From the sequence record PP952733.1: a DNA stretch of 64,000 nt; one strand, given 5' to 3'. Numbering within the stretch: position 1 is the stretch's first letter; each line of letters opens with the position of its first letter. The stretch is from Escherichia phage vB_EcoM_H12. Below are positions 27,268 through 64,000 of this stretch, in pieces. Made by a program: the position numbers and the translations under genes. The notes beneath the pieces are model-generated. The model worked only from the letters and a program-made list of their open reading frames with translations. It did no database searches and was not told the DNA's origin.

Positions 27268-27494
27268 ACATTACTGCAAAAAATTATAAAAAGCAAGTTG
27301 ACAATGTACTTGACAAGGTGTTAATCTTTGCGAAGTGGGTTTTTACTTAAAAGGTTACTTAACAGTTTAACTATACAGATACTTTAAAACTCTTAAAAGA
27401 TTATTTAATAGCTTTTAAAAAGCTTTAAAGTATAACGTATAGAATACGTTAAGATAAAAGATTAAAACTTAATAGTTACTTAAAAGAGGCTTAC
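27268..27494. promoter_or_regulatory. divergent AT-rich control region
   Basis: Two overlapping TTGACA hexamers (27296-27313); palindromes AGCTTTTTAAAAAGCT and AACGTAT-AGA-ATACGTT. Confidence 0.4.
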
Positions 27495-27917
27495 ATGCAG
27501 AAAATGTTTGTTCACCCAGACATAGCTGACTTTGTTAGGGCTTTGCAGAAGTTGGAAGAACTTGACATTGCTGCTCAACGGGAATATGCTCACCATCACA
27601 GGAGAATGGTTGATATACAACATGAAATAGAGTTGTCTGAAAACTATGAAGATGACTTAAAATGCTCTGTATTTGAGCATATGAAAGATGTTGCTACAGC
27701 GAGACGTAAAGCTAAAGATACAGTTGCTTTACTAGATTCTCTTAAAAAGAGGTTGCAAAGTGGTACAGACCTGTGTAATCTAGCGTCACTGATTAACGAT
27801 GTTGAAACTTCTTGGGATAGACATTACTATCCACGTTCTGAAAAGGCACTTGACTTTTCTTCATCAGAAAACTTAAAATATTCTAGAAAGAAACTTAACC
27901 AACTGAGAGAGAAATAA
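27495..27917 (+). CDS. hypothetical protein
   Basis: 140 aa; first gene after divergent region. Confidence 0.4.
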   Translation: MQKMFVHPDIADFVRALQKLEELDIAAQREYAHHHRRMVDIQHEIELSENYEDDLKCSVFEHMKDVATARRKAKDTVALLDSLKKRLQSGTDLCNLASLINDVETSWDRHYYPRSEKALDFSSSENLKYSRKKLNQLREK

Positions 27918-27918
27918 T

Positions 27919-49054: not shown

Positions 49055-51421
49055 ATGCGCATGGTAAATGACCACGCAGAAGTGATTAAGAGTTCAACTT
49101 CTTTGGAGACGTCTCAAGCACAGATTACAATGACACCTGAAATGTTCAGCCTTTTGAGTTCTGGTGTATATACCTTTAAAGAAAGGGCAGTTATCCGTGA
49201 ACTGTCATGTAACGCAGTAGATGCTCAGAAAGAAGCTGGAAAAGAGAACATCCCGTTCCATGTGCATTTACCTACTCGTTTTGAGCCTTACTTTGAAGTT
49301 CGTGATTTTGGAACTGGATTGACTCATGATAAAGTTATGAGTTTGTATCTAAATTACGGGGCTTCTACGAAGAATGACTCTAATGATTACATTGGTGCAA
49401 TGGGTATCGGTTCAAAATCTCCATTTGCAATCGCTCAGTCATTCACAGTATCTAGCTATGTTGATGGTGTTGTTAATAAGTACTCTGTTTACCTTGAGAA
49501 TGGTATCCCTCAAGTAACTAAGCTGACCACCAACCCAACAAAAGAGCCTAATGGTTTAGCTGTACGTGTAGCAGTTGCTGACCATCGTATTTCAAAGTTC
49601 TTTGAAGAAGCTGGTCATGTATACTCATACTTTGCTGTAAAACCAGAAAGTAACATCGAGTATGACGATGTATTAGCAGATATGAATGTCATTGCCCGTG
49701 AAGAAGGTGTTTATGATGCCATGATTCACAAACAAAGCTGGCGTTCTAGTGGTAACAGGACAGAGTTTAATGTAGTGATGGGTAACATTGCCTACCCTGT
49801 TAATATGGAAGCATTACTTGGTGATGATTTCTTCAAAGTATTGCCAGAATTTTTCCGTAGGAGCGTAGACCTTGTAAACATCTACATGCCTATTGGTTCA
49901 GTTGCTATTGCAGCTTCTCGTGAAGCATTGCAGATGAATGACACGACAAAAAATGTTATCATCGAAGCTACTAAAAAGATAACTGAAGCAATTACAAAGG
50001 ATGTTATCAAGAAAGTTAATAGCCAACCTACACTCATGGATGCTGCACAGGCTTATGCTGAGTTGCGTTTGAACTCACGAGAGATGTTTAATGCTGTGTG
50101 TCCAAAGCTAGAGTGGGGAGGCGTTAAGCTTGATTCTCTGGAAGAAGAATTACTAAACATTCGTCGTGGAATTATCTACGCAGAAGATGGCTCAGTCATC
50201 TATGAACGTGATGGTAAAGGTAATATTAAAGTTGATAGGAATGGAAACAACATCCCTAAAGTAGATTATCTTTATAATCCTGTTGCTTATGTTAAGTTCA
50301 ACTCTTTAGAGAGTAAGATTCGTGCAACATCGCTTTCCTACACTCAAGAGGCAAGTATGTTCAATATCTTTGGCGCAATGCGTAAAAGCCAAATTGAACA
50401 GTTTTTGTTTGTTATCAATGACCGTCGCAATAAAAACGGTACTGAGAAAACTGTAGGACGCAACCAGATTCTGCGTGGTGCATGTCGAGACTATGCCAGC
50501 GAGTCAAGTCTGTTTCACAGATACAATGGTATTGTCTTTGTATTCTCTACTGAGAAAGAGCTAGATGATTTAATCAATCTGCACAAACTTGATAAAAGCT
50601 TGTTAAAGATTGTGAAGATGTCTGATAAGGAACATCATTATCAGCGTAAAGAAGCTGTGAGAGGTGTTGTAAAACTCTGGAAAGCTGTTCCAGCAGAAGG
50701 TGTAGCTTCATACAAAGAGGTGTCAGAAGACTTTGATACAATTGAAGAGCCTCAGCTTTACATCAAGGCAGTCGGTGACACAGTTGATGGTGAATGTTTT
50801 TGCTCATCTCCAGAAGATGTAGCTAAGTCAGTTGCTAATGTTACAGGTAAGACAATCTATGTTTTCCGAAAAGCAAATTGGAAAAAGATACCAGAAGACT
50901 GGATTGAAGTAGATGAGAAGCTCTTGAACGACAGCTTAACTGATGTTCACTGGATTAATCACAACAGGTATATGACACGTATCTATATGAATGGTGTCCT
51001 TGACCTTACAAGCAGTTGGATTATTGCCAGAAACTTTACGTTCAATAACAGGAAGATTTCTCGTGGTTATTGCTATTCACGAGACACAAATAAAACTATC
51101 TTCTTAGAAGGCAATGAAGATGCTGTTGAGGCAATGTTTGGTAAAATCCAATACGTTGCTGCACCGTTTGCATACACTTACACCGTTAGTCGGTTGCAAA
51201 CTTTGAAAGAATGCCTTGACAACGATACAAAGCTGTACAAGAAAATTAAGAAAGCTGGTGACCGTATGGTTATTAAGGTGACAAACTATCTTTTAAAAAG
51301 AAAACAAGAAAACTTCTTGCTTTCTCATTTAGATTGGAATAAAGTGTCACCCATCGAAGTGAGTAAGTTCTTAGGCTTTGATGTGAAGTGTGTTCCAGAA
51401 GGGACTACAATTTACGATTAA
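49055..51421 (+). CDS. rIIA: rIIA-like protein (GHKL-type ATPase domain)
   Basis: 788 aa; N-terminal RELSCNAVDAQ ... VRDFGTGL ... GIGSKSPF matches the T4 rIIA N-terminus as recalled; followed by rIIB-sized gene. Confidence 0.75.
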   Translation: MRMVNDHAEVIKSSTSLETSQAQITMTPEMFSLLSSGVYTFKERAVIRELSCNAVDAQKEAGKENIPFHVHLPTRFEPYFEVRDFGTGLTHDKVMSLYLNYGASTKNDSNDYIGAMGIGSKSPFAIAQSFTVSSYVDGVVNKYSVYLENGIPQVTKLTTNPTKEPNGLAVRVAVADHRISKFFEEAGHVYSYFAVKPESNIEYDDVLADMNVIAREEGVYDAMIHKQSWRSSGNRTEFNVVMGNIAYPVNMEALLGDDFFKVLPEFFRRSVDLVNIYMPIGSVAIAASREALQMNDTTKNVIIEATKKITEAITKDVIKKVNSQPTLMDAAQAYAELRLNSREMFNAVCPKLEWGGVKLDSLEEELLNIRRGIIYAEDGSVIYERDGKGNIKVDRNGNNIPKVDYLYNPVAYVKFNSLESKIRATSLSYTQEASMFNIFGAMRKSQIEQFLFVINDRRNKNGTEKTVGRNQILRGACRDYASESSLFHRYNGIVFVFSTEKELDDLINLHKLDKSLLKIVKMSDKEHHYQRKEAVRGVVKLWKAVPAEGVASYKEVSEDFDTIEEPQLYIKAVGDTVDGECFCSSPEDVAKSVANVTGKTIYVFRKANWKKIPEDWIEVDEKLLNDSLTDVHWINHNRYMTRIYMNGVLDLTSSWIIARNFTFNNRKISRGYCYSRDTNKTIFLEGNEDAVEAMFGKIQYVAAPFAYTYTVSRLQTLKECLDNDTKLYKKIKKAGDRMVIKVTNYLLKRKQENFLLSHLDWNKVSPIEVSKFLGFDVKCVPEGTTIYD

Positions 51422-51426
51422 AGTGT

Positions 51427-51456
51427 TTGACAAGGGGCTTTGAAGCCCCTTAGAAT
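51427..51456 (+). promoter_or_regulatory. sigma70-like promoter with hairpin in the spacer
   Basis: TTGACA, 17-18 nt spacer that is itself GGGGCTTTGAAGCCCC, then TAGAAT. Confidence 0.5.
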
Positions 51457-51501
51457 AACCTCACAAAAATGATTTATTAACTAACAAGAGAGAGTAATAA
51501 G

Positions 51502-52611
51502 ATGACTACTAAAACTAAAGCACAGATTGACGCAGAAATCTACAAACTGGTTAAAGAAGGTAAGCTGACTAAAACAGCTATTGCACAGAAGTTCAATACT
51601 TCAACCCGTTCAGTCGGTCGTGCTGTAGAGCGTCATGAAGCAACCTTAAAAGGTAAGAAAAAGGTAGCTTCTAAACCAGTTAAGAAGACTCTAAAGCAAG
51701 TTGCTAAGTCAGTTAAAAAGAAAGCTGGCAAACCAGTTGAAAAGGTTGTTAAAGAGGCTGTACAGAAAGCTCCAGTAAATAAACTGCATGAAGCTATGCA
51801 GAAAGATGACAAGATTGAGTATATGATTACTGGTGACTCTGTAATTATGACTTACGGTTCAGAGTCTGAAATTGTTGAGTCTACTCATCCGAACTATCAA
51901 GAAATTGTAGTTCATGTTGTGAAAGGTGAGTTCAAGAAAGCATTTGAACTGATGAACATTCGTAAGTCTATCGAAAACTTCACTCAGGGTGCTATCACAA
52001 TCAAAGGTGACAAGTTATTCTACGGTGCTGTTGAGATGCGTTCTACTCTGGTTGACCGTATTCTTCACATGATGAAGACTGGTGATAAAGGCTTTGAACG
52101 ACTTGTAATGTTCTTCGAAAAACTGATGGAAAACCCATCTAAAGACTCTGTAGAACAGCTTTGGGGATTTGTATCTCACCTTGATGTTGAAATTGATGAA
52201 GAAGGCTACATCATTGGTTGGAAGAAAGTCTCTACTCGTGAAGGCAAGTTGGTTGACTCCCACACCTACAAAGTACCTAATGATTTGGGTAACATTGTAG
52301 AAATGCCACGTTGGATGGTTGATAACAACCGTAACGTAACTTGCTCTCAGGGTCTTCATGTTGGTGCTTGGGATTATGTTCGTTGCTTCTCAGGTGATAC
52401 AATCCTGAAGGTTCGTGTCCATCCACGAGATGTTGTATCTGTTCCGACTGATTACAACGATATGAAGATGCGTTCATCCCGTTATGAAGTTGCAGCAATC
52501 GTTGATAATCAACGTAAAGTGTTGAAAGCATGGGACGGTAAGACTGAAGCTTTGCATGTCATCGTTGGCACTGCTGGTGAACTAATCTCCCAACGTAAAC
52601 GTGAAATCTAA
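51502..52611 (+). CDS. rIIB: rIIB-like protein
   Basis: 369 aa; Lys-rich N-terminal region; directly downstream of rIIA-like gene. Confidence 0.5.
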   Translation: MTTKTKAQIDAEIYKLVKEGKLTKTAIAQKFNTSTRSVGRAVERHEATLKGKKKVASKPVKKTLKQVAKSVKKKAGKPVEKVVKEAVQKAPVNKLHEAMQKDDKIEYMITGDSVIMTYGSESEIVESTHPNYQEIVVHVVKGEFKKAFELMNIRKSIENFTQGAITIKGDKLFYGAVEMRSTLVDRILHMMKTGDKGFERLVMFFEKLMENPSKDSVEQLWGFVSHLDVEIDEEGYIIGWKKVSTREGKLVDSHTYKVPNDLGNIVEMPRWMVDNNRNVTCSQGLHVGAWDYVRCFSGDTILKVRVHPRDVVSVPTDYNDMKMRSSRYEVAAIVDNQRKVLKAWDGKTEALHVIVGTAGELISQRKREI

Positions 52612-62270: not shown

Positions 62271-62299
62271 TTGCAAAGACAAATCAAATCAAGTAAATT
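62271..62299 (+). promoter_or_regulatory. type-2 promoter
   Basis: TTGCAA-N17-TAAATT then GGGGGA-TGACC-TCCCCC hairpin. Confidence 0.55.
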
Positions 62300-62360
62300 A
62301 CTAATCAACGGGGGATGACCTCCCCCACTAAATAAAGTCCTTAAACTAGGAGATTCTAAA

Positions 62361-62891
62361 ATGAACAAGTTTAAAGCTATCAATTACATCCGCTCAAATA
62401 GTGTTATGTCAAAACCTGTTAAAGATACCTACGAATTTCGTTGCAATGGTGTACACTTTGCAACAATCACCAAATCAGAAAACGGAGCTTATTACATTCA
62501 TCGCCGTAATGTTGCAACCGTTGTTGTCTCTCACTTTATGCAAGCTGTCGCGGAACTTCTCCCGATGTTTTTAGGGCTTTACTTGGATGAGTGTAAAAAC
62601 GTTCACAATCACGTTAAAAACCTTTTAAATAGCTATAAAATGGCTTATGAACGTTCTATCAAGTCATTGAACAAGTTTTACAACGCACCTGAAAATACTG
62701 TATCAATAGCTTATGACGTAAGCGGTGAAATGGTAAACTTATCCAATGTGGAAGAAATCAAGCTGCATGATTTACGCCCTAGCGGTGACTCTAAGACTCT
62801 CGGTGAAGGTTTAACGTTCAATATCAAGAACTTAGAGAAAACTTTAAAAGATATTGAAAAAGATATTGACGAGACAACCAAAAATCTGTAA
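62361..62891 (+). CDS. small-gene array: hypothetical protein
   Basis: 176 aa; conserved leader. Confidence 0.45.
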   Translation: MNKFKAINYIRSNSVMSKPVKDTYEFRCNGVHFATITKSENGAYYIHRRNVATVVVSHFMQAVAELLPMFLGLYLDECKNVHNHVKNLLNSYKMAYERSIKSLNKFYNAPENTVSIAYDVSGEMVNLSNVEEIKLHDLRPSGDSKTLGEGLTFNIKNLEKTLKDIEKDIDETTKNL

Positions 62892-62894
62892 ATT
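62866..62894 (+). promoter_or_regulatory. type-2 promoter (inside the 3' end of the upstream gene)
   Basis: TTGACG-N17-TAAATT then GGGGAGGGAATGACCTTCCC hairpin. Confidence 0.5.
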
Positions 62895-62956
62895 GTCAAT
62901 CAACGGGGAGGGAATGACCTTCCCACTAAGTAAAGTCCTAAACTGGAGTTATCAAG

Positions 62957-63220
62957 ATGGAAAACGTAGAATTAACCGCACTATTGCAGATTGCAACTGA
63001 TAAAGAGGATGTAGCACTGTTCCACCGCATTGAAAGCGATTTGTTCAATGGTGAAATCATCAAAGAGTCTTACGAAGTTGTCGGATTCAAAGACGGTAAA
63101 ACGTTCGGATTCTTTGACCTTGATAAAGGCAACGCGGTTACAAAATATGATGTTTTATCTTGTGAGATTCTTACAAGATACAACGAAAAAAGGCTTGCAA
63201 CATACGCCAACATGCAGTAA
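62957..63220 (+). CDS. small-gene array: hypothetical protein
   Basis: 87 aa; leader variant. Confidence 0.4.
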   Translation: MENVELTALLQIATDKEDVALFHRIESDLFNGEIIKESYEVVGFKDGKTFGFFDLDKGNAVTKYDVLSCEILTRYNEKRLATYANMQ

Positions 63221-63223
63221 ATT
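63195..63223 (+). promoter_or_regulatory. type-2 promoter (inside the 3' end of the upstream gene)
   Basis: TTGCAA-N17-TAAATT then GGGGGA-TGACC-TCCCCC hairpin. Confidence 0.55.
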
Positions 63224-63284
63224 ACTAATCAACGGGGGATGACCTCCCCCACTAAATAAAGTCCTTAAACTAGGAGATTCAAAA

Positions 63285-63533
63285 ATGGCAACTATCCGCG
63301 CAATTGTAAATTCTTATGGCTGCTACACTCTGGACGTTAAATTTGATATTGGTGGAACTGATGAATGCTTTTCATTAGTGAAGACAGTTATCAAGCAAGT
63401 TATCCCAGACTATAACCCTACTGATGACTTCTGGAAAGATGCCGTAAAAGAGGCGTTGAACGATGAATATCATTACCATTATTGGGGTGACTTGATTGTA
63501 TCCCTGTACTACAGCAAACAAGGTTACAACTAA
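63285..63533 (+). CDS. small-gene array: hypothetical protein
   Basis: 82 aa; conserved leader. Confidence 0.45.
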   Translation: MATIRAIVNSYGCYTLDVKFDIGGTDECFSLVKTVIKQVIPDYNPTDDFWKDAVKEALNDEYHYHYWGDLIVSLYYSKQGYN

Positions 63534-63571
63534 TCGACGCAACGGGGCTAAATAGCCCCAGATACCTTTAC

Positions 63572-63595
63572 AGCCCCTTAAATGGGGCTTTTTTA
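63572..63595 (+). terminator. intrinsic terminator closing the small-gene array
   Basis: AGCCCC-TTAAAT-GGGGCT then TTTTTT; extra hairpin GGGGCTAAATAGCCCC just upstream. Confidence 0.55.
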
Positions 63596-63599
63596 CGTC

Positions 63600-64000
63600 T
63601 ATGTAATAGACCCTACACAATCCTTTCCAGAATCTATCTCGTACCTTAAAAGCAATAACTCTATAGCTTACTCTATAGCCCCTTATCAAATCAACTTAAA
63701 TATAAGCCAATAACCCCAGAAAGGGGATGGCCCATTTAAACGCTCTATAAAGCTCTATAACAGCCTTATCAACCTAACTTAATGGATTGCATTAACTCAC
63801 CCTTAAAAGCTCTTTACAGGGCTTTATAGAGGCTTAAAAGAATCTTATAAGGGTGTAAGCTTTATCATCTCGTTAGTTATCTTGTGAATGGTTAAACAAC
63901 CCCTTGATAGTCACTAAAAAGTATGTTATAGGGGCTATAAAGTCACTTTGAAGTAGCTTAAAAGTTACGTAAAAGGTGTTTAAAAGTTACGTAAATGCTA
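63600..64000. repeat. non-coding region with short direct repeats (continues beyond window)
   Basis: Repeated CTCTATA(A)AGC units; TTAAAAGTTACGTAAA twice at 63958-64000; no ORF over 60 aa. Confidence 0.4.

Follow-up and report, generated by a model that had tools for sequence, protein, structure and literature searches.

In phages T7 and T3, the terminase recognises the flanks of the short direct terminal repeat (DTR) during maturation and nicks strand-specifically at both of its boundaries, and the repeat is copied by strand displacement. To our knowledge, the cutting and duplication of a short terminal repeat have been worked out only in these two phages. Arrays of small-terminase binding sites are also present beside the cut site in lambda cosB and in the pac sites of SPP1 and P22. 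Phage T5 possesses a repeat-dense non-coding injection-stop region near its genome end, and its repeat is ~10 kb long and contains pre-early genes. The roles of the T7 short-repeat arrays (SRL/SRR) and of its pac elements were reportedly described by Dunn and Studier in 1983 and by Chung and Hinkle in 1990.

A DTR of ~600 bp is already published for the Felix O1-like phages, which are classed as T7-type DTR phages by PhageTerm (PMC6454146, PMC8928762). The DTR of vB_EcoM-Ro111lw (Ro111lw) was given as 613 bp by PhageTerm (PMC6454146), and vB_EcoM_D4 (D4) was also found by PhageTerm to have direct terminal repeats (PMC11737134). Short DTRs have been reported for other Ounavirinae (PMC11737134, PMC8928762, PMC11984208), including one of 439 bp in Kolesnikvirus (PMC8928762; short DTRs also in PMC11984208), and in Felix O1-like Erwinia phages the sDTR type was assigned by TerL homology (PMC11984208). 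In the Felix O1 genome paper, "short terminal repeats" were guessed from a size difference and the sequence was opened at rIIA (PMC3185647). Because of this opening point, the terminus is buried ~15 kb inside most records. The published Ounavirinae reports (Ro111lw, D4, E9, I14.1 and Kolesnikvirus) give only the packaging class, with the repeat length in two of them. Our search of the open-access literature, including the Felix O1, wV8, VpaE1, Bas63 and PhageMaP papers, found no description of the region studied here, and none of cross-genus exact boundaries, conserved single-copy flanks, 11-bp units, stepped DTR lengths or mirrored CTCTATA boxes.

The locus analysed here lies at the end of a 64,000-nucleotide stretch of DNA (the window). 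It is the same element as that of the published Felixounavirus DTRs: the records of Ro111lw, D4, CRP22 and ZX4221 start their DTR right after the point equivalent to the window end, in homologous sequence. It is similar to the T7 end in having a short, non-permuted DTR with fixed boundaries and gene-poor surroundings full of strand-biased short repeats with a TAAAG core, and the window also encodes a replication pair of T7 type (family A DNA polymerase and Toprim-DnaB primase-helicase). T7 has CCTAAAG heptamers every 13 bp within its 160-bp DTR and to either side of it; here CT.TAAAG, CTTAAAAG and CGTAAAAG recur at 11 bp. However, the motifs are unrelated in detail, the DTR is 3.5–4 times longer than that of T7, the gene-free module is ~1.5 kb, and the phage is a myovirus. 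Furthermore, no phage RNA polymerase promoters or other promoters are present near the ends, whereas T7 has A0, phiOL and A1 within 500 bp.

By functional analogy, the locus also resembles lambda cosB and SPP1/P22 pac, with short repeated site-like elements within a few hundred bp of a sequence-specific terminase cut (putative here). But the ends here are a direct repeat, neither cohesive nor headful, and the IHF consensus gives only one chance-level match, on the minus strand. With T5 it shares a repeat-dense non-coding segment near the end of a DTR phage; the DTR here, however, is gene-free, so a two-step transfer would have no obvious purpose.

Identity of the phage

A total of 227 phage records match positions 63000–64000 of the window, with a best identity of 90.5%, and nearly all of them are Felix O1-like phages of Escherichia, Salmonella or Shigella. 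More than 250 homologues were found in the phage collection. The gene order at the genome end matches that of AYO145A and ASO1A, and GATC is totally absent, as published for Felixounavirus. The window belongs to Felixounavirus (Ounavirinae), a Felix O1-like myophage at about 90% identity to its relatives. This is consistent with its large ORFs, which include a tail sheath-like DUF3383 protein, a tape measure protein, baseplate J, a tail fibre, NrdA, NrdD and NAMPT.

The terminal repeat and its boundaries

In AYO145A and ASO1A, the equivalent stretch without genes measures ~1.55 kb and is flanked by convergent annotated terminators, a rightward one on one side and a leftward one on the other. 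Our analysis showed that the gene-free region of the relatives contains a short DTR. Beyond the point equivalent to the window end, they possess a DTR of 570–660 bp, then a gene-free flank of ~600 bp, and then the convergent terminator.

Exact DTRs were found at both record ends of D4 (581 bp), CRP22 (579 bp) and ZX4221 (591 bp), with identical boundaries. The Ro111lw record begins with GCCCCC and finishes with GGGCTACC, and its boundary motifs are 613 bp apart, the same as its published PhageTerm length. These four relatives, which carry both DTR copies (579–613 bp), were sequenced independently in different laboratories. All four share the left boundary ...GTTACGTAAATGCTA/GCCCCCTTAACA... and the right boundary ...GGGCTACC/AAGCAGATA..., where the slash marks the boundary; in D4, CRP22 and ZX4221 the two read ...AAAGTTACGTAAATGCTA/GCCCCCTTAACA... 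and ...GTTAAGGGCTACC/AAGCAGATATACAT... The records E9, I14.1, ECP2307, pEP20 and GE_vB_7A start or stop at these same points. The GTWACGTAAAWGYTA/GCCCCCTT junction was identified in 33 loci, and more than 25 genomes, from three genera, keep both boundary motifs. The four records and the conservation of the motifs show fixed, non-permuted boundaries, as in T7-type short-DTR ends, and the element is very probably a genome end of this type. It is not a cos-type cohesive end, as the relatives have duplicated ends of 579–613 bp.

Apart from GCTA, the left and right boundaries have little in common, so no shared cleavage motif can be discerned. The palindrome TTACGTAA was considered as a dimer-binding site and rejected: it is replaced in Mooglevirus by GTAACGTAAA / TAACGTAA, which makes dimer-site symmetry doubtful.

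The window ends with ...AAAGTTACGTAAATGCTA, and its base 64000 directly precedes the left DTR boundary (GCTA/GCCCCC) of the relatives. The chance that a random window would end at this base is ~1/87,000. This indicates that the source record was almost certainly opened at a determined left terminus. The simplest reading is that the DTR is written once in the source record and that the window is the last 64 kb of it. In agreement with a record opened at the terminus, the window contains no copy of the DTR, no left-end genes and none of the roughly 22 tRNA genes typical of these phages. TerL was absent from the scanned ORFs of the window and lies, with any TerS, in the roughly 23 kb of the genome outside it.

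The termini of this phage rest on homology and on the position of the window end. On these grounds, the 405 bp at 63596–64000 very probably form the unique sequence at the right end of a Felix O1-like genome, abutting the DTR. An earlier note on this DNA, made from the letters of the window, had suggested a candidate packaging, terminal-repeat or origin region. The genome end is indeed tied to a DTR in the four relatives, but the 405 bp are a single-copy flank outside the repeat, and the tandem GTTACGTAAA units adjoin the cut position from outside when the boundaries of the relatives are applied. Its statement that the window ends inside the region holds in so far as gene-free DNA continues in the relatives; the stop itself falls exactly at the DTR boundary and is not arbitrary.

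The last gene, the terminator and the gene-free flank

We aligned the flank of eight genomes, including those of the Felix O1-type FO1a, the Mushroom-type GEC_vB_BS, the Suspvirus SUSP2 and the Mooglevirus Mordin. The features identified in the window are as follows.

63285–63533, plus strand: last protein gene of the rightward block, hypothetical, 82 aa (ORF list)
63544–63559, plus strand: hairpin 1, GGGGCT-AAAT-AGCCCC (RNA fold)
63572–63595, plus strand: Rho-independent terminator, 6-bp GC stem and T6 (terminator scan and fold)
63596–64000, plus strand: conserved single-copy non-coding flank, 405 bp, very probably directly left of the DTR (no promoter or Rfam match, cross-genus identity, alignment)
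63659–63677, plus strand: pair of CTCTATAG boxes, 12 bp apart (motif search and alignment)
63714–63726, plus strand: small hairpin CCCC-AGAAA-GGGG (sequence and alignment)
63738–64000, plus strand: array of ~24 degenerate 10–12-bp units, roughly G.CT.TA.AA, up to the DTR boundary (self-identity and spectrum)
63743–63759, plus strand: second CTCTATA pair, 10 bp apart, CTCTATAAAGCTCTATAA (motif search and alignment)
63825–63831, minus strand: inverted CTCTATA box (motif search)
63832–63853, plus strand: block CTTAAAAGAATCTTATAAGGGT (alignment of eight genomes)
63958–63973, plus strand: first TTAAAAGTTACGTAAA unit (sequence)
63980–64000, plus strand: second TTAAAAGTTACGTAAA unit (63980–63995) and TGCTA (sequence)

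The 82-aa gene borders the gene-free terminal region on the left, and its homologue is annotated as the final CDS before this region in AYO145A, ASO1A, D4, CRP22 and ZX4221. Hairpin 1 is invariant in seven of the eight aligned genomes, its 5′ part being missing from the FO1a row, and elements of its caacGGGG...CCCC type recur in the upstream intergenic spacers at 62901–62950 and 63231–63280. Hairpin 2 (AGCCCC-TTAAAT-GGGGCT, 63572–63589), followed by T6 at 63590–63595, was detected by the terminator scan as well. As RNA, the two hairpins fold at −26.7 kcal/mol (z = −4.6), and none of 200 shuffles folded as well. A terminator is annotated at the equivalent place in the relatives, and the one at 63572–63595 ends the rightward transcription unit. 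Sequence, fold and terminator scan agree with the double hairpin and terminator that the earlier note had placed at 63544–63595.

No credible gene could be identified in the 405 bp after it by the ORF list or by the alignment of relatives, and the ~400 bp without ORFs described before are thus confirmed. Only two mechanical ORFs touch 63596–64000. One encodes 43 aa on the plus strand (63582–63713), with its ATG inside the terminator loop; the other encodes 104 aa on the minus strand from a TTG start and mostly overlaps the last gene. Both were rejected as genes, because their start codons are not conserved and there are indels of 11 and 12 nt among the relatives.

Analysis on putative regulatory elements gave no sigma-70-type promoter match on either strand of 63596–64000. 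In the full homologous region of AYO145A there were only minimal matches (9 of 12), 8 in number against 4.4 ± 1.8 expected, and sigma-70 promoters were therefore rejected. When Rfam covariance models were run on the window end and on the full homologous region, the best scores were 17–25 bits against thresholds of 35–60, with E-values of 0.5–1; known RNA families were rejected, as no match came near any threshold. IHF and DnaA sites were rejected as well: the IHF consensus has no match on the plus strand and one on the minus strand (63897), at chance-level density (10 in the window), and the region contains no DnaA box.

As a single strand, the region folds better than its shuffles (z = −3.6). 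This signal is due to an inverted CTCTATAAAGC pair, which is absent from half of the relatives. The small hairpin at 63714–63726 is found in the relatives as CCCC-AGAAA-GGGG or CCC-GAAA-GGG. A wedge-model calculation, approximate in its parameters, gave no support for strong intrinsic curvature from 11-bp-phased A-tracts: the mean bend per 31 bp came to 18.3 degrees, where the genome as a whole averages 18.7 ± 2.4, and 341 of 630 windows bend as much or more.

Repeats and boxes of the flank

CTCTATA occurs at 63659, 63671, 63743 and 63753 on the plus strand and at 63825 on the minus strand. These sites are five of only seven occurrences in the 64 kb, both strands counted, so the repeated CTCTATA-type units noticed earlier are real and clustered. 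The box pair at 63659–63677 sits within the invariant block CAATAACTCTATAG...ACTCTATA and is found at −212 to −461 bp from the DTR boundary in 10 of 10 genomes, and the pair at 63743–63759 within the invariant block AAACGCTCTATAA.GC.CTATA. At the inverted box, GCTTTATAGAG (63820–63830) is the exact reverse complement of CTCTATAAAGC (63743–63753). However, about half of the relatives lack the inverted box, and its hairpin potential is therefore not conserved. A cruciform or hairpin of CTCTATAAAGC and GCTTTATAGAG was rejected: it is exact here, but in about half of the relatives the second arm is changed without compensation. The block CTTAAAAGAATCTTATAAGGGT next to this box is identical in Felixounavirus, Suspvirus and Mooglevirus.

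In 63738–64000, self-identity at a lag of 11 bp is 0.433, against a background of 0.267 ± 0.032 with a maximum of 0.381, and none of 630 windows reaches this value. There is also a Fourier peak at 11–11.25 bp, which is a weaker statistic, matched by 10 of 315 background windows. The k-mers of the motifs are enriched 20–100 times and strand-biased, and indels of 11 and 22 bp within this array separate the relatives. Two exact copies of TTAAAAGTTACGTAAA, 22 bp apart, are set in the 11-bp-periodic array; with them, AAAGTTACGTAAA occurs exactly twice in the window (63961 and 63983), and the tandem unit that had been seen at the window edge is resolved as exact copies at 63958–63973 and 63980–63995. 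The repeats and motifs observed here are more than chance.

The number of GTTACGTAAA-type units beside the cut varies among the phages. ZX4221 has one copy, this phage and most others have two, and GEC_vB_BS has three, whereas FO1a possesses an expanded 33-bp tandem array. With copy numbers from one to an expanded array, not every unit adjacent to the cut can be essential.

Conservation across genera

The identity of the 405 bp to the other genomes of three genera is 0.66–0.74, against 0.42–0.50 at the third codon positions of the two adjacent genes; the first and second codon positions of these genes have identities of 0.56–0.77. As the flank lies well above the third codon positions, the alignment indicates that it evolves like constrained sequence, under purifying selection. 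Invariant or near-invariant blocks were identified in every genus, namely CAATAACTCTATAG..ACTCTATA; CTTATCAAATCAAC; AAACGCTCTATAA.GC.CTATA; CTTAAAAGAATCTTATAAGGGT; and CTTGTGAA. All eight aligned genomes have one 22-bp block without any change, and the other blocks are nearly invariant. The junction itself is conserved as AAAGT.ACGTAAA.G.TA/GCCCCCTT.ACA. In the right flank, past the DTR, 47% of the columns are invariant across six genomes.

The gene-free region of the relatives is dense in short strand-biased repeats (CTTGTTA, 12 against 0.2 expected; TGTTAAG, 11 against 0.4), and over its full length the self-identity again peaks at an 11-bp shift. The classes of motif switch at the DTR boundary. 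The left flank carries on its plus strand CTCTATA, C(T/G).TAAAG-type and GTTACGTAAA units and is essentially without TGTTA-type units. The DTR opens with three CTTAACA units at 11-bp spacing, followed by ~25 TTGTTA(A/G) and CTGTTAA units, and the right flank has further TTGTTA units.

The CTCTATA boxes are mirrored around the DTR. On its left they are on the plus strand, 210–460 bp away (235–345 bp in most), and on its right they are on the minus strand, 228–260 bp and ~450 bp away, both in 10 of 10 genomes from three genera. No box of the opposite orientation was found within 680 bp right of the DTR in these 10 genomes. The background is ~0.01 box per 400 bp per strand, so neither the two clusters nor the way they mirror each other can be put down to chance, although counts taken from related genomes such as these are not independent of one another. 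We rejected the possibility that the flanks are degenerate inverted copies of each other, since BLAST matches between them were only 8–13 bp long and only CTCTATA is mirrored.

The distances between the boundary motifs in 25 distinct sequences were 569–570, 579–582, 591–592, 601–603, 612–614, 623, 633, 638 and 658 bp. The DTR length thus changes in steps of ~11 bp (circular concentration R = 0.83 at period 11), a value reached by none of 10,000 random sets, with the reservation that the genomes are related.

Proposed role in packaging

On balance, we favour the flank as a terminase recognition or positioning site for T7-style cutting and duplication of the DTR. This role is suggested by the position of the flank, its conservation across genera and the analogy to T7. 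The candidate recognition or positioning elements are the conserved blocks in 63640–64000, above all the units abutting GCTA/GCCCCC and the mirrored CTCTATA boxes.

In this model, the flank would be the left half of the packaging signal and would sit, at each concatemer junction, directly upstream of the one DTR copy present there. The terminase would bind the conserved blocks (GTTACGTAAA units and CTCTATA boxes), perhaps together with an accessory DNA-binding protein. One strand would then be nicked at ...ATGCTA^GCCCCC and the other strand at ...GGGCTACC^AAGCAG. Strand-displacement synthesis would duplicate the DTR, as in T7, so that a copy would be placed at both ends of every packaged genome. 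What we observe is where the flank lies with respect to the DTR, that the boundaries are fixed, that genes and known RNAs are lacking, how the repeats are organised and that purifying selection acts; protein binding, the nicks and the duplication are what we infer.

An extension of this model would treat the whole ~1.5-kb module (flank, DTR, flank) as one phased nucleoprotein scaffold, in which the 11-bp units would align bound proteins along a single face of the helix. A bridge between the inverted CTCTATA boxes would loop out the DTR so that both strand-specific nicks could be made in a single complex, and the 11-bp steps of DTR length would reflect a helical-phase constraint between the cut sites and not mere slippage. 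We regard this extension as speculative and rather unlikely. If true, this architecture of a packaging signal would be without a described counterpart among DTR phages.

Alternative explanations

The region might be a replication origin or secondary origin, with the 11-bp units as iterons or as primase or initiator sites, and such a function could coexist with one in packaging. T7 possesses secondary origins, phiOL and phiOR, near both of its ends, and in the T7 record the annotation puts the phiOL promoter at position 405. The iterated strand-biased 10–12-bp units and the presence of the T7-type replication module agree with an origin. The GC content is lower than in the whole genome (35% against 38.7%), but this leaves AT only slightly above the genome mean. 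The lack of a DnaA box in the region, of a promoter for priming transcripts and of an adjacent initiator gene in the annotations of AYO145A and ASO1A argues against it. GC skew follows only the gene orientation, and its sole switch from negative to positive is elsewhere, at ~26–28 kb, near the divergent region at 27.3–27.9 kb. Since no evidence connects the units with replication in preference to the genome ends, we consider an origin improbable.

Another possibility is a DNA-entry or end-protection element, in which a protein of the phage or the host would attach to the arrays and either control ejection, in the manner of the T5 injection-stop region, or block exonucleases. The element does lie at both physical ends, genes and promoters are absent for ~1 kb inward from either end in the relatives, and dense conserved repeats are present inside the DTR and on both sides of it. 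But nothing experimental or comparative points to such a function, and a first-step transfer would find no genes to express in the DTR. The conserved blocks, moreover, are concentrated at the cut sites, as would be expected of maturation signals. The chance of an entry or protection element appears small.

Equally small is the chance of a silent spacer without sequence-specific function, whose degenerate 11-bp repeats arose by slippage or unequal recombination. The differences in unit copy number between isolates and the ~11-bp steps of DTR length are what slippage would give, but slippage does not agree with a cross-genus identity far above that of third codon positions, with the 22-bp block invariant in all eight genomes and the others nearly so, or with box positions and orientations fixed in 10 of 10 genomes.

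A gene for a small RNA or small protein that annotation has missed, to which the 43- and 104-aa ORFs, the folding above shuffles (z = −3.6) and a 54-aa reverse ORF called at the gene end by the automatic annotation of one relative might point, is highly improbable, as 63596–64000 has no sigma-70-type match on either strand and a terminator directly upstream, no Rfam match near threshold, no conserved start codon, frame-breaking indels of 11 and 12 nt, and a fold signal due to the inverted CTCTATAAAGC pair that half of the relatives lack.

Significance

Terminase recognition thus remains the reading that we favour for this flank. Nothing here is conceptually new, and the DTR end is an ordinary one, though undescribed in detail. 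Felix O1-like phages are widely used in the typing, biocontrol and therapy of Salmonella and E. coli, and they are now engineered, as in the case of Bas63. The exact chromosome end and the conserved flank are useful for correct assembly and annotation of their genomes, and also for genome rebooting and for the design of packaging-competent vectors. We know of no packaging signal defined in the subfamily Ounavirinae. Concrete candidates for its terminase recognition signal are the conserved blocks, together with the CTCTATA boxes mirrored around the DTR and the GTTACGTAAA units next to the cut.

Restriction-type sites and the DTR left boundary

Analysis of short palindromes revealed that GATC is absent from both strands of the window (1–64000), while 187 ± 12 copies were expected from shuffled sequences. 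Four hexamers are likewise absent from the same 64,000 nt: CTGCAG (20 expected), CAGCTG (16 expected), ATGCAT (14 expected) and GAATTC (9 expected). That the genus lacks MboI/GATC and other restriction sites has been reported previously (PMC5477317). GCTAGC, the NheI site, was not found in the window either, against 4.2 copies expected. In most Felixounaviruses this hexamer arises across the left boundary of the direct terminal repeat (DTR), as ATGCTA|GCCCCC (e.g. 2854–2865 of L003, a locus of one relative), and, read from the relatives, its position is the junction just past window base 64000. Mooglevirus has GTTA|GCCCCC at this boundary instead. In Salmonella phage FO1a, a Felix O1 derivative, the boundary unit has grown into a tandem 33-bp array, GGGGCTTAAAAGTTACTTCAAAGTAACGTAAAA, in several copies (L013, ~2150–2310).

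Intergenic cassettes and hairpin inserts

An intergenic cassette, composed of a caacGGGG..loop..CCCC hairpin followed by ACTAAATAAAGTCCTTAAACTAGGAG, was found just upstream of start codons.

Cassette copies in the window
~62290–62363, intergenic cassette
62893–62956, intergenic cassette
63226–63284, intergenic cassette

The cassette resembles the 26-bp repeat, like a 'start-associated sequence', that has been described for the Mooglevirus phage Mordin (PMC4611695). The relatives also hold many copies of this hairpin and ACTAAATAAAGTCCTTAAACTAGGAG combination.

Several phages carry a ~30-nt insert (..ATAGATTCGATAGARTCTATCTCATA..) within the loop of a GCCCC/GGGGC terminator hairpin. The terminator that carries it is the rightward one in some phages, and the leftward one, with the insert in reversed orientation, in Mordin.

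ATAGATTCGATAGARTCTATCTCATA inserts in loci of the relatives
L007 453–470
L009 459–476
L011 1758–1775
L012 3294–3311, minus strand
L023, L031 and L037

No copy of this insert was found in the window. A small palindromic element that moves or recombines is one possible identity for the insert.

Internal regions of the window

Spectral power at 10–11.5 bp is highest at ~51200–51800, where it exceeds that of the terminal non-coding region (63534–64000). This peak lies around the place where a 788-aa ORF ends and the following one begins.

The window has 23 copies of CTTAAAAG against 5.3 expected, an excess of about 4-fold. Three of these are clustered in a divergent intergenic region, between a leftward DNA polymerase block and rightward replication genes.

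CTTAAAAG copies within 27268–27918
27346, first copy
27392, second copy
27479, third copy

The GC skew changes sign near this cluster, at ~26–28 kb. The region 27268–27918 may contain early promoters or an origin.

tRNA genes and the remainder of the genome

Felixounaviruses possess about 17–25 tRNA genes each, whereas none was found in the 64 kb of the window (1–64000). The tRNA cluster must be in the ~23 kb that the window does not cover, as must the terminase gene and the genes of the left end. This agrees with a genome that was opened at its terminus and of which the window forms the right-hand portion.
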